Part shown: one piece after another, positions 1,225 through 15,334 of the stretch | How the letters are laid out: the number at the start of each line of letters is the position of its first letter | Numbering within the stretch: the stretch's first letter is position 1 | Assembly (NCBI GenBank): GCA_048939465.1 | Contig: JBHLPL010000021.1 | Span: 1 to 22,258 of the forward strand | DNA length: 22,258 nucleotides | DNA from: Promethearchaeota archaeon | Lineage (GTDB): Archaea > Asgardarchaeota > Odinarchaeia > Odinarchaeales > JBHLKK01 | Direction of reading: 5' to 3' | The notes under the pieces: model-generated | The model's database searches: none | What the model was told of the DNA's origin: nothing | What the model saw: only the letters and a program-made list of their open reading frames with translations | Translations under genes and position numbers: made by a program

Positions 1225-1236
1225 GTCATTTACAGG

Positions 1237-1551
1237 TTAGATACGCTCGATCTTGAATATGACTGGTCTCAACCCATCGGTACAACAGCTCACTTCAGGA
1301 GCTTCCTTACCCCCTTCCTTTGAAAAATTCCCTCCATACCGCAACGTGGTCACTACTGTGAAAATGTCACTCCAAGCCCAGTAGCAGAATCCCTCTGGCA
1401 TCTCTCCATCATCCCCGACAATAAACTCTTGCCCCTCTTCAAATACGCTACAAGCTTCTGAAAACTTATTCAGAGGAGGACTATCACCGAATACATCCCT
1501 TGTATTCATCTTCTTTAGGACCGTTATCTTGACTTTGCTTTTCTCTGCCAT
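1237..1551 (-). CDS. TIGR04076 family protein (104 aa), copy 1
   Basis: KVKITVLKK...CSVFEEGQEF...MPEGFCYWAW...CCTDGLRPVIFKIERI. The start is set at ATG 1551 because the paralogue at 15020-15334 begins MAEK at the equivalent position. The 43-codon upstream extension in the ORF track runs into a mobile element. Confidence 0.85.
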   Translation of the reverse strand: MAEKSKVKITVLKKMNTRDVFGDSPPLNKFSEACSVFEEGQEFIVGDDGEMPEGFCYWAWSDIFTVVTTLRYGGNFSKEGGKEAPEVSCCTDGLRPVIFKIERI

Positions 1552-1636
1552 AAAATCGCCCACTTCCTCTTCTTTCATATATCTAAACCACCTCAAAGAG
1601 ACTCCTTCCTGGAGGGCGGAGAGGAATTGAGTGGTT

Positions 1637-1650
1637 CTTAAATACTTTCG
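1637..1650 (-). promoter_or_regulatory. BRE+TATA candidate (CGAAAGTATTTAAG) inside the element, facing the TIGR04076 gene
   Basis: Match to the archaeal BRE/TATA pattern about 85 nt upstream of ATG 1551. Confidence 0.5.
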
Positions 1651-1653
1651 TGG

Positions 1654-1661
1654 TATATAAG
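1654..1661 (+). promoter_or_regulatory. TATA box candidate (TATATAAG) for the putative omega-RNA
   Basis: About 25 nt upstream of the start of the GC-rich structured segment. Confidence 0.45.
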
Positions 1662-1682
1662 CTAGCGGGTCTAAAGGCACAC

Positions 1683-1898
1683 CTCTCTCTGATGTGGAAA
1701 CGGTTGATGACCTATGAAGACGGTGGGGTAAACCCTATAGCCCGACGCTACATGCGGATTACCGGGCTGGGGCGCTGTAAACTGTCCCATGATTTGGCGT
1801 GTGATGAAACCAAAGCCCAGAAGGGAATTGCGGTCAAGCATAGTCATAAGCTCCTTCTGCAAGGGAGGAGTAGTTTACATATCTGATACTGCCGGGAT
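1683..1898 (+). ncRNA. Putative TnpB omega-RNA (right-end RNA) scaffold plus about 20-nt guide
   Basis: Helices AGCCCG/CGGGCT (1739-1744/1763-1768), GGGGC/GTCCC (1769-1773/1784-1788), TTTGG/CCAAA (1793-1797/1810-1814) and CAGAAGG/CCTTCTG (1818-1824/1853-1859), ending at the IS right end. The 5' and 3' limits are estimates. Confidence 0.5.
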
Positions 1899-12953: not shown

Positions 12954-13045
12954 GGCTAGAACCATCGACTAAAACCTTTCAGAAAATCTATCAGTGTACT
13001 CTTCGGTTTGCTAACAAACTACCTGCTCCTTGTAAGACCGTAACC

Positions 13046-13783
13046 CTACTCTATTCCCATACTCTTCCTTATTTTCAATACCTTACTTGCTCTCTGAACG
13101 TACTTATTGATGGATTGTGCCGCTCTTTGGTCTGAATATCCTTCATAGTCTTCGAGGGTAATTGTCGCCTCTTTAGTCTTTATTTTTCTGCCCGATGTGT
13201 AGTCAAATTGAAAGATCTTAAAAAGAGCTAATTCCCCCATCGATCTCCAGTATTCCACCGGCCGGTGACTGTGTCTCGACCACCACCACCCACTGGGCTG
13301 CCTGCCTGAAGGGTATCTATCTTCGACCAGCGTCTGAACACCAATCATTCTGTCTACCGGTATTTCCCAATTGTGTTTCTTGGAACTCCTAGGATTAAAC
13401 CTAAAAACCCTTTTTAGTGTAACAACAATGACGTCTTCCTCCGCTGACGGGAGATGGGGACTAGGTTTGTATAAGTATGCAGAATGATAAACCCACTCAT
13501 CTAGGCGGAGCAGTTCTCTTACACGGCTCGAAAGCTTCTGTCTGAGCCTTCTCTGTTCCTCATACAGGTGCTCTTCATATTCTTCGGAGATCTCATACTG
13601 CCCCGAATCTCCCTCTATGAACACCAATCCGCAAGAACGACATGCCCCCCTCTCTTCTAAGGTTACAGAAGAGCCACATATAGGGCATCTGTTGGACTCC
13701 AAGAAAGCGGAAGCTACACCCCCACCGAAGATCATATCAAATGAGGTTATGATATCTTCTCTTAGGAGCTCAAAATCCTTCAA
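13046..13783 (-). CDS. Zn-ribbon (CPIC...CxxC) plus PH-like domain protein, short paralogue
   Basis: Collinear with the C-terminal two-thirds of 13826-14905. IVVTLKRVFRF...WEIPVDRMIGV resembles bacterial PH-fold domains. The start is uncertain (TTG 13783 or ATA 13813). Confidence 0.75.
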   Translation of the reverse strand: MKDFELLREDIITSFDMIFGGGVASAFLESNRCPICGSSVTLEERGACRSCGLVFIEGDSGQYEISEEYEEHLYEEQRRLRQKLSSRVRELLRLDEWVYHSAYLYKPSPHLPSAEEDVIVVTLKRVFRFNPRSSKKHNWEIPVDRMIGVQTLVEDRYPSGRQPSGWWWSRHSHRPVEYWRSMGELALFKIFQFDYTSGRKIKTKEATITLEDYEGYSDQRAAQSINKYVQRASKVLKIRKSMGIE

Positions 13784-13825
13784 ACAAAACTCCCCCTTAG
13801 ACCCTAATTCTATAAGATTTTCACC

Positions 13826-14905
13826 TCACTCTATTCCCATGCTTTTCCTCAATTCCATTACCTTTTTTGCTCTCTGTACGTATTTATCGATGGATTGTGC
13901 CGCTCTTCGGTCTGACCATCTCCTATACTCTTCGATGTAGATTGCCGATTCCTTACTCTTTGTTCTTCTGCCCGAGGTATAGTCGAATTGAAAAATCTTA
14001 AAGGGAAATATCTCCCCTGTGGCTCTATCAAGTGCTAACGGACCTCCTGACTTGCGCCACCCACGCCGATGATACCGCCACCATACACGCCGATGATACC
14101 GCCACCAACTAATTCGATCACCTGAAATGTATCTGTCTTCAACAAATACCCGAACACCAGTCATTTTGTCTACCGGTATTTCCCAGAAATGTCTCTTAGC
14201 CCTCTTAGGATTGAACCTGAACACCCTTTTTGAAGTGACAACAACGACTTCCTCCTCAACCGATAGATGATGAGGCCTCCGTCTGTAGAAGTCTGCAGAA
14301 TGATAAACCCACTCATCTAGGCGAAGCAGTTCTCTTACACGAGATGAAAATTCCTGTCTGAGCCTTTCCTGTTCCTCGTACATGTGTTCCTTGTACTCTT
14401 CGGAGATCTCATACTGCCCCGAATCTCCCTCTATGAACTCCAATCCGCAAGACTTGCAGGAACCTATCTCTCTCAAGGTTACACCAGAACCGCATATAGG
14501 ACATCTGTTGAATCCCAGAAAAGTGGAAGCTATATCCCCGCCAAAGTTCATATCAAATGAGGTCCTGATATCTTCTCTTAGAAGCTCTAAATCCTCTGGC
14601 AAAAGCTTTCTTCCCAGAGCTACCTCTACCTGAGCCGGATATTCTGCGATTTGCAGGGGACCTTCCTTTCTCCACCAAGCCTCAAATTCTTTCTTGGTAA
14701 GATTCAGATAGACTGTCTTTCTTTTGATCCTTGCGATCATACCTCTTGGTAGGATGAAGGTCCCTCTTTCTCCCACATAACTCTCCATGGCAATGTCATT
14801 GCCAACGATTTCGTCAACGATTCCTAGCTGTTTGCCATCTGAACTTTCTATCCCTTGGGTCTTCTCTGTTAGTTTCGAGATATCTTTCAACAACCCCCCC
14901 ACCAA
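13826..14905 (-). CDS. PRC-barrel-like + Zn-ribbon + PH-like domain protein, long paralogue
   Basis: N-terminal IESSDGKQLGIVDEI...FILP..MIARI...VYLNLTK is PRC-barrel-like, followed by CPICG...CKSCG and a PH-like region. The start is uncertain by a few codons. Confidence 0.75.
   Translation of the reverse strand: MVGGLLKDISKLTEKTQGIESSDGKQLGIVDEIVGNDIAMESYVGERGTFILPRGMIARIKRKTVYLNLTKKEFEAWWRKEGPLQIAEYPAQVEVALGRKLLPEDLELLREDIRTSFDMNFGGDIASTFLGFNRCPICGSGVTLREIGSCKSCGLEFIEGDSGQYEISEEYKEHMYEEQERLRQEFSSRVRELLRLDEWVYHSADFYRRRPHHLSVEEEVVVVTSKRVFRFNPKRAKRHFWEIPVDKMTGVRVFVEDRYISGDRISWWRYHRRVWWRYHRRGWRKSGGPLALDRATGEIFPFKIFQFDYTSGRRTKSKESAIYIEEYRRWSDRRAAQSIDKYVQRAKKVMELRKSMGIE
14062..14107. repeat. In-frame 24-bp-period tandem repeat (22 bp identical), encoding WWRYHRR twice on the minus strand
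   Basis: CACGCCGATGATACCGCCACCA at 14062-14083 and 14086-14107. Confidence 0.95.
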
Positions 14906-15019
14906 TACCCTAATTTCAGTTGTAACTAAGGAGTATTAAGCTTTATCTCACAGATTGAGCATCCCTGAGTAACCCGAAAAACCAGGACAATTCAAGAGCA
15001 ATTCCTCTTCAGGTTCTGG

Positions 15020-15334
15020 TTAGATGCGTTCGATACTGAATATGACCGGCCTCAGTCCGTCTGTACAACATCTCACCTTGGGAGTTTCCCTACCCTCCTT
15101 CTTTGAAACCCTTACCCCATACCGCAGCATGGTTACCACTGTGAAAAGATCATTCCAAGCCCAGTAGCAGAACCCCTCTGGCATCTCCCCGTCATCGCCT
15201 ACGACAAACTCTTGCCCCTCTTCAAATACGCTACAAGCCTCTGAAAACTGTTCAGGTGGAGGATTATTGCCAAATACGTCCCTTGTATTCAGCTTCTTTA
15301 AGACCGTTATCTTGACCTTGTGTTTCTCTGCCAT
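15020..15334 (-). CDS. TIGR04076 family protein (104 aa), copy 2
   Basis: 83/104 residues identical to copy 1 by manual alignment. GGTGAT RBS. Confidence 0.88.
   Translation of the reverse strand: MAEKHKVKITVLKKLNTRDVFGNNPPPEQFSEACSVFEEGQEFVVGDDGEMPEGFCYWAWNDLFTVVTMLRYGVRVSKKEGRETPKVRCCTDGLRPVIFSIERI

Follow-up and report, generated by a model that had tools for sequence, protein, structure and literature searches.

What is the structured, protein-less DNA that separates two co-directional genes in this archaeal contig, and does it specify a functional RNA? A preliminary description of the DNA placed a stand-alone TnpB-type omega-RNA cassette, driven by its own promoter, at positions 1654–1898, and supposed the host to be an Asgard archaeon. 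Here we consider the locus within the window, by which we mean the whole stretch of 22,258 nucleotides that was analysed. The strings quoted in that description all stand at their stated coordinates, and its reading proves correct for the most part. The whole mini-transposon begins further upstream than had been proposed, at 1583. We consider it probable that, taken as a whole, 1583–1878 on the plus strand is a non-autonomous IS200/IS605 element of the PATE/MITE type, which originated by internal deletion within a tnpB-only (IS1341-type) element and has retained the guide RNA. On this reading it is a mini-transposon of about 300 bases, devoid of protein, that has kept both the promoter and the folded scaffold of the guide RNA from its TnpB-encoding parent.

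A mobile element with precise ends

The genome that holds the window comprises 1.96 Mb in 152 contigs and is 91% complete. Copies of the element were found by a profile search (nhmmer), which yielded 18 full-length copies in this genome (about 305 nt each), a pair of roughly 150-nt tails situated behind tnpB genes and some 45 further matches confined to the first 80 nt. Further copies are present in two genomes of the same genus and divergent ones in Borrarchaeota, the overall divergence among copies being 10–28%. Similarity starts at CTAAACCACCTC (1583) and ceases abruptly after ...GGAGTAGTTTAC at 1878, which agrees with the right end originally assigned; in each metagenome run, 5–7 contigs diverge at that same position. 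The ends and flanks contain the following features:

1237–1551, minus strand: gene of 104 aa in the left flank, downstream; likely true start ATGGCAGAG near 1549–1551
1574–1578, plus strand: TTCAT in the left flank, target and transposon-adjacent motif (TAM); empty alleles read TTCAT-ATATCTG
1579–1582, plus strand: extra ATAT between the TAM and the left end, as seen when the flanks are aligned to the empty sites of genomes G001 and G002 and to a contig of metagenome run X7
1583–1634, plus strand: left end (LE), which includes a subterminal hairpin and is conserved in 18 copies; the same LE stands before tnpB on contig C70
1602–1621, plus strand: LE hairpin CTCCTTCC-TGGA-GGGCGGAG, with compensatory changes
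1850–1871, plus strand: right-end (RE) hairpin GCTCCTTCT-GCAA-GGGAGGAGT, with compensation between clades (CTCC/GGAG versus CCTCAC/GTGAGG); its covarying arms may also be written CTCCTTCT-GCAA-GGGAGGAG
1873–1878, plus strand: terminal GTTTAC, the element ending at 1878
1879–1898, plus strand: flank ATATCTGATACTGCCGGGAT, the would-be guide by its position only, antisense to the last monooxygenase codons
1875–2870, minus strand: luciferase-like monooxygenase gene from the table of open reading frames (Pfam PF00296, E = 3e-40)

The subterminal hairpins at the two ends resemble each other and both covary, the layout expected for the ends of IS200/IS605 elements. The 18 full copies are dispersed and carry no protein-coding gene. 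The table of open reading frames and a frame analysis gave no nuclease ORF within the element, as had been noted before, and neither a conserved reading frame nor codon periodicity was found among the copies. In most copies of the genus the LE is immediately preceded by (T)TCAT, which the preliminary description had proposed as the TAM; TCAC takes its place in the Borrarchaeota clade.

The predicted empty allele, TTCAT|ATATCTGATAC, exists in nature. In two same-genus genomes the orthologous monooxygenase loci lack the element and read ...TTTTTTTAC|ATATCTGATACTGCCGGG (G002) and ...TTTTTCAA|ATATCTGATAC (G001). A metagenome contig from run X7 joins window position 1578 straight to 1879, with five differences in 522 nt of flank (99% identity), and is, judged by this flank, the TTCAT-ATATCTG allele of a very close population; other runs contain more distant empty alleles. 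Alignment of the flanks with G001 gives TTCAT|ATATCTGATAC as the ancestral site, at which the monooxygenase stop codon overlapped an ATGA. The present stop, TAA at 1875–1877, is within the last bases of the element, the ancestral one being deduced from G001. We show by these comparisons that 1583–1878 is mobile DNA, and that it entered its site on the 3′ side of TTCAT, in the interval between two co-directional genes.

Insertion of an IS200/IS605 element is expected to leave no target duplication. Insertion 3′ of a motif of 4–5 nt with precise empty sites is what we observe, and a 4-nt repeat is seen in the window copy only, where the ATAT at 1579–1582 repeats the first four nucleotides of the right flank (1879–1882); alignment with G001, G002 and the X7 contig indicates that the ancestral site held a single ATAT. 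Excision of the window copy would therefore be predicted to leave TATAT rather than TTCAT beside the target, so that the extra ATAT might impair this copy's own retention.

The genome carries a heavy load of gene-less IS200/IS605 derivatives, which belong to two or more families. Its 1.96 Mb contain 84 right-end-like termini (50 GTTCAC and 34 GTTTAC), whereas tnpA occurs once and tnpB three or four times. Some mini-copies, about 108 nt long (contig C84, 8667–8774; contig C41, 8644–8750), consist of the LE and RE hairpins alone, with the RNA scaffold absent. A unit of only 46 nt (contig C105, 1000–1045), ...CTCCATCCGGAAGGGTGGAGTAGTTTAC, combines a single hairpin with the right-end tail of the mini-element family and precedes the start of the genome's only tnpA by about 135 nt.

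Several observations concern the placement of the copies and their neighbours. Most of 17 full copies in the genome (for example C66, 3252–3556; C139, 3766–4072 and 5274–5574) lie antisense between co-directional genes. In 10–12 of the 17 an antisense ORF is open from the ATG created by the TAM, behind the GAGGTGG-TTTAG of the element, and in five of the 17 the upstream ORF ends at the TAA within the final GTTTAC. At the window copy the real start is 27 nt further on, so that the rule of placement may simply be insertion a short way upstream of gene starts. The ATG of the TAM was considered as the start codon of the flanking 104-aa gene and rejected, because orthologs and a paralog put the true start at that more distant position; the paralog (15020–15334, minus strand) and the G002 ortholog both start at ATGGCAGAG. 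No Pfam family was found for this gene. Paralog and gene are 81% identical within the window (1226–1525 versus 15009–15308), and upstream of the paralog stands TTCATCTAGAC, which looks like the TAM joined to the opening 6 nt of a left end. Elsewhere in the window, 13033–13604 and 13813–14420 form two pairs of direct repeats, 780–816 nt apart and 77–79% identical, within or between the minus-strand ORFs 13046–13783 and 13826–14905; they look like tandem paralogous genes.

A tnpB-bearing parent and a candidate transposase

A cognate tnpB had been anticipated in the genome, and one was found. The ends of contigs C70 and C55 share 77 identical nucleotides, and joining the two there gives an intact tnpB element of 1246 nt, in the order TTCAT, LE, ATTAAATAG (a TATA-like box), a tnpB gene of 381 aa and ...GGGGTAGTTTAC, the tail being GTAGTTTAC. 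The protein has the Pfam domains OrfB_IS605 and Cas12f1-like TNB. Its RuvC glutamate (V-I/M-E-D-L), a RuvC aspartate (N-S-D-L-N-G-A-R-N) and four zinc-finger cysteines align to solved chains of the Cas12f family, ISDra2 TnpB entries being among the matching structures, and the first RuvC aspartate (G-V-D-L-G-V-N) is readable in the sequence. By these residues the enzyme is apparently catalytically intact. A second tnpB copy, on contig C5, is degraded. An intact ortholog of 380 aa occurs in a same-genus genome (Candidatus Hodarchaeota), which identifies the host as an Asgard archaeon, as had been supposed, and more precisely as a member of the Hodarchaeota; relatives at 70–73% identity are found in Borrarchaeota.

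The relationship between the mini-element and this parent is evident at both ends. The left 85 nt of the mini-element are the left end of the parent, including the TATA-like box, and the last 150 nt (about 1729–1878) are homologous to the parent's closing 150 nt, a segment shared in part with the C-terminal codons of tnpB and reaching the right end. The scaffold is homologous to the 3′ ends of seven tnpB genes in all and stops at the RE. These tails accommodate the same RNA helices, which bears out the identification of the segment as a stand-alone omega-RNA cassette of TnpB type. The scaffolds of mini-element and parent differ in the tip of helix H3 (see below) and in the right-end hairpin; compatibility of the mini-element scaffold with the C70/C55 TnpB is assumed here.

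In this 91% complete assembly a single Y1 tnpA was detected, on contig C105 (PF01797, E = 7.5e-37). The end hairpins of that element are similar in form to those of the mini-elements, while its RE tail reads GTAGTTCAC as against GTAGTTTAC in the mini-element family.

A candidate promoter and a conserved 5′ block

Between the left end and the scaffold derived from the tnpB tail, the element can be divided as follows, the majority fraction among copies being given for each segment:

1638–1644, plus strand: TTAAATA in the LE, candidate archaeal TATA box, conserved (0.81)
1654–1661, plus strand: within the spacer, TATATAAG, variable (0.70)
1667–1713, plus strand: conserved 5′ block of the predicted RNA, 47 nt (0.86), nearly invariant between clades
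1714–1735, plus strand: variable linker, in place of about 300 nt of tnpB coding sequence (0.52)

The preliminary description took TATATAAG for the promoter, with a transcript starting near 1683. The string is indeed present at 1654–1661, but it belongs to a poorly conserved spacer, and at the same place other copies have ATATACAT, GATGAGTA, CTAGACAT or CAAACGTG. The TTAAATA of the left end is the more likely candidate. In the Hodarchaeota copies the conserved RNA block follows it at a distance of 23 nt; in Borrarchaeota the same spacing of 23 nt holds for TTTAAATA or TTTATATA, with spacer sequences unrelated to those of the Hodarchaeota. In the parent the same box is followed, 22 nt on, by the ATG of tnpB, implying a leaderless mRNA. 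The usual distance from TATA box to start site in archaea is established knowledge. The likely promoter is thus TTAAATA at 1638–1644, and its spacing puts the predicted transcript start at 1667–1669, the first bases of the block. In some copies the TATA box is degenerate.

The 5′ block is among the best-conserved segments of the family. It derives from two stretches inside tnpB, AAAGGCACACCT and GTGGAAACGGTTYATGAC, some 480–530 nt upstream of the right end of the parent. Both sub-blocks are invariant, synonymous sites included, across six tnpB genes, which come from Hodarchaeota, Borrarchaeota and one further family; the 33 nt that separate them vary freely. The 47-nt block from inside tnpB is under constraint at the nucleotide level, possibly a new detail that may go beyond the literature. 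The linker that follows it is the least conserved segment of all, with insertions and deletions that are not multiples of three. A motif highlighted in the preliminary description, GGTGGGGTAAACCC, is present, but as it falls in this most variable linker it is not a feature of the family.

It is conceivable, though we regard it as doubtful, that the functional RNA in this clade of TnpB has two parts, a module inside the tnpB frame some 480–530 nt upstream of the right end and the scaffold of the tail. The module would consist of the two sub-blocks AAAGGCACAC and TGGAAACGGTTYATGAC, invariant in the six genes, and might serve as a processing or binding site for TnpB or give the 3′ GUUU tail a second partner. 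If this were so, the mini-elements would be natural minimised versions in which both parts have been joined behind the LE promoter. The hint that some omega-RNAs include a distant module inside tnpB would matter for the design of guide RNAs. Pairing of the 5′ block with the 3′ scaffold (UGACC/GGUCA and AUGAC/GUCAU) was considered and rejected, being lost in the Borrarchaeota copies and in the parent element.

Comparative evidence for a plus-strand RNA structure

The structured segment, 1668–1878, is 211 nt long and has a GC content of 52%, compared with 44% for the window. Folded as a single sequence it is no better than its shuffles on either strand (z = -1.0), so that the case for structure rests on comparison between copies. 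For this purpose 33 copies from four genomes and two clades were aligned, and the consensus was obtained by RIBOSUM-scored alifold; RNAalifold on the whole element and on A2 gave poorer structures in which H1 was missed. Apart from the right-end hairpin, the principal elements of the consensus are:

1739–1768, plus strand: helix H1, AGCCCG/CGGGCT with inner CGC/GCG; G-C to U-A at the inner stem in six copies; kept in the tnpB-linked tails
1769–1788, plus strand: helix H2, five of six pairs changed on both sides
1777–1782, plus strand: loop of H2, GTAAAC, candidate pseudoknot partner of the 3′ tail
1795–1846, plus strand: composite helix H3 (1795–1807/1834–1846 and 1811–1818/1823–1830) with a GUGAUGA internal loop

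The plus-strand structure has 57 pairs, and 90.5% of the cells in the 33 copies are canonical, as against about 40% in a control in which the partner was slid by 1–3 columns. Covariation across copies, which the preliminary description had proposed as a check, is seen at 22 pairs changed on both sides; that count was reached by one of 300 column shuffles and the covariation score by none of 300, although since the copies are related these shuffle figures overstate the significance. The abundance of G-U pairs assigns the structure to the plus strand, so that there is a conserved secondary structure on the strand that is sense for tnpB. Support from covariation is located in the part derived from the tail, namely H1, H2, H3 (eight pairs changed on both sides, and many G-U pairs) and the right-end hairpin. 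In the 5′ block variation is too scant for covariation, and what does vary falls in a predicted loop and bulge. The window copy satisfies all 57 pairs, the copies C84 and C69b 36 and 41 of them respectively, and the seven tnpB-linked tails fit 34–37 of 41 pairs and contribute further compensatory variants. We show by this comparison that the plus-strand helices of 1583–1878 are under selection. A competing helix between CAGAAGG (1819–1825) and CCTTCTG (1853–1859), proposed in the preliminary description, can be drawn in the window copy, where both strings are present, but other copies read GCCCGAAAGGG, GCCTGAAAGGG and similar and lose the pairing.

The loop of H2 may make a further contact. 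Among the 84 right-end-like termini, an upstream GTAAAC accompanies 20 of the 34 that end in GTTTAC and two of the 50 that end in GTTCAC; conversely, GTGAAC or GGAAC is found with 20 of the 50 GTTCAC termini and three of the 34 GTTTAC termini. The families being few, this association is supportive, without being decisive, of a predicted pairing of the loop GUAAAC with the terminal GUUUAC.

A separate observation concerns H3, whose conserved internal loop contains GUGUGAUGAAAC (1800–1812); the motif GATGAAAC that had been picked out earlier is present at 1803–1810, and UGAUGA is common to both clades. GUGUGAUGAAAC is a candidate kink-turn and could be, for example, a site for L7Ae. Searched as a whole at gathering thresholds, the window matched no Rfam family, and at E-values up to 10 the matches were at chance level (sR41 at 13.3 bits, L13 leader at 12.6 bits). 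A C/D box sRNA was rejected as a candidate: sR41 scores 13.3 bits against a threshold of 54, and the C-box-like UGAUGA at 1706–1711 is UAAUGA in most copies. A scan of the window for tRNA and tmRNA was negative.

The predicted guide and a proposed mechanism

The flank ATATCTGATACTGCCGGGAT, correctly placed at 1879–1898 by the preliminary description, matches the empty site of G002 at 20 of 20 positions and that of G001 at 18 of 20. When the 16-nt guides of 19 copies were compared with the genome allowing one mismatch, the copy's own flank was the sole match in every case; weaker matches in the same genome were at chance level, with 2–3 mismatches and no adjacent TTCAT.

The mechanism that we propose follows from the arrangement of these parts. 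Transcription would start from the left-end TATA box near 1667–1669 and run through the scaffold into the flank, to yield an omega-RNA with a guide from 1879 onward, and the TnpB of the parent element would load this RNA in trans. After excision by TnpA, the complex would cut the rejoined site, TTCAT + ATATCTGATAC..., the proposed cleavage target of TnpB and RNA being TTCAT + ATATCTGATACTGCCG; recombination with the sister chromosome would then restore the element. As had been observed earlier, the flank is antisense to the last codons, at the 3′ end, of the luciferase-like monooxygenase gene. Antisense pairing with the monooxygenase mRNA, like the stop codon that the element supplies to this gene, is a side effect of position.

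Alternative explanations

Could the locus be an inert relic, a decaying mini-transposon whose scaffold looks conserved only through the youth of the copies and which makes no functional RNA? The degraded copies C84 and C69b, with their 36 and 41 of 57 pairs, and the degenerate TATA boxes of some others would suit such an account. The copies are nevertheless 10–28% divergent and preserve their pairs by compensatory change, linker and spacer drift freely when the 5′ block and the helices do not, and the same design persists in Borrarchaeota, all of which makes an inert relic unlikely. A role of the helices as single-stranded DNA during transposition, recognised by TnpA or a host factor, has to be weighed against an RNA because structure in the top DNA strand would give the same covariation signal. 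Y1 transposases are known to act on LE and RE hairpins as single-stranded DNA. However, the copies of about 108 nt with LE and RE hairpins only indicate that the internal helices are not needed for movement, G-U (in DNA, G-T) pairs are frequent, and the helices coincide with the tnpB tail, a known location of omega-RNA; we judge the DNA explanation distinctly improbable. The minus strand offers a small protein gene or operon spacer, with a stop TAA, an internal GAAGGAG-ATG, 60–100 open codons and GAGGTGG-TTTAG-ATG. About half of the copies have open frames of 86–102 codons, lengths reached by 2–35 of 300 shuffles, and the Shine-Dalgarno-like GAGGTGG adjoins the flanking gene in most copies. 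We rejected this explanation and give it hardly any credence, since the frames are inconsistent among copies past the variable linker, where indels are not multiples of three, and substitutions lack codon periodicity (p = 0.23).

The preliminary description also suggested a dispersed library of guides, in which the copies, domesticated, would jointly program one TnpB or a nuclease-dead derivative against host or foreign targets. There are many cassettes and their guides differ, and published work leaves the role of standalone omega-RNAs open (PMC10691335). The results speak against such a library, which we regard as very improbable: each of the 19 guides matches its own flank only (16 nt, at most one mismatch); the cognate TnpB retains the RuvC Asp, Glu and Asp and the zinc-finger cysteines, contrary to the suggestion of a dead enzyme; and the polymorphism of presence and absence is that of selfish mobility. 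The published self-retention reading is simpler and fits the guides, the catalytic residues and the presence/absence polymorphism, which together favour retention over a regulatory or defensive library.

Comparison with known systems

With retention of a guide RNA by a non-autonomous IS200/IS605 element as the preferred reading, the locus can be set beside described systems. PATEs ‘often encode omega-RNAs’ on which TnpB acts in trans (Meers et al., 2023, preprint, PMC10055086), and the discovery of standalone omega-RNAs, together with the demonstration that they function in trans, is stated by Altae-Tran et al. (2023, PMC10691335, citing Altae-Tran et al., 2021). The present element resembles those described in the two papers in having no protein gene, in its LE and RE hairpins, in insertion at a short motif without duplication, and in its many copies within a genome that also holds effector-bearing elements; its scaffold likewise ends at the RE, its guide would come from the flank, and effector and transposase would act in trans. 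It differs from the published examples in its Asgard archaeal host, in the LE tnpB promoter directly before the RNA, and in the 47-nt block from mid-tnpB kept ahead of the tail-derived scaffold. Archaea express omega-RNAs associated with IS200/IS605 elements, according to PMC12558985, in which the terms MITE, PATE and promoter do not occur; unlike the RNAs described there, the RNA of the window copy is overlapped by no tnpB.

The C70/C55 parent is built like IS1341-type elements, with TAM, LE, tnpB and a scaffold that overlaps the 3′ end of tnpB and stops at the RE. The window copy differs from ISDra2 and IS1341-type elements in that it lacks tnpB, has a TAM of TTCAT rather than TTGAT and matches no Rfam family. 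The pseudoknot between loop and pre-guide segment suggested here presumably resembles that of the ISDra2 omega/reRNA. TldR proteins are nuclease-dead relatives of TnpB that act as RNA-guided transcription factors. As with TldR, the guide RNAs are encoded apart from mobile, intact elements; in contrast to TldR, the TnpB here retains its catalytic residues, the guides target only their own insertion sites and the cassettes are still mobile.

What has been assembled is a well-documented stand-alone omega-RNA mini-transposon from an Asgard archaeon (Hodarchaeota), together with its parent tnpB element, a transposase candidate, the TAM, natural empty alleles and a structure backed by covariation. 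With the complete set in hand, a pair of TnpB and omega-RNA with a TTCAT TAM becomes directly testable. The stand-alone omega-RNA mini-transposon is of a kind already described in bacteria, and the present one is a clean example of it rather than a new system, in keeping with the current picture of such elements, which it leaves unchanged.
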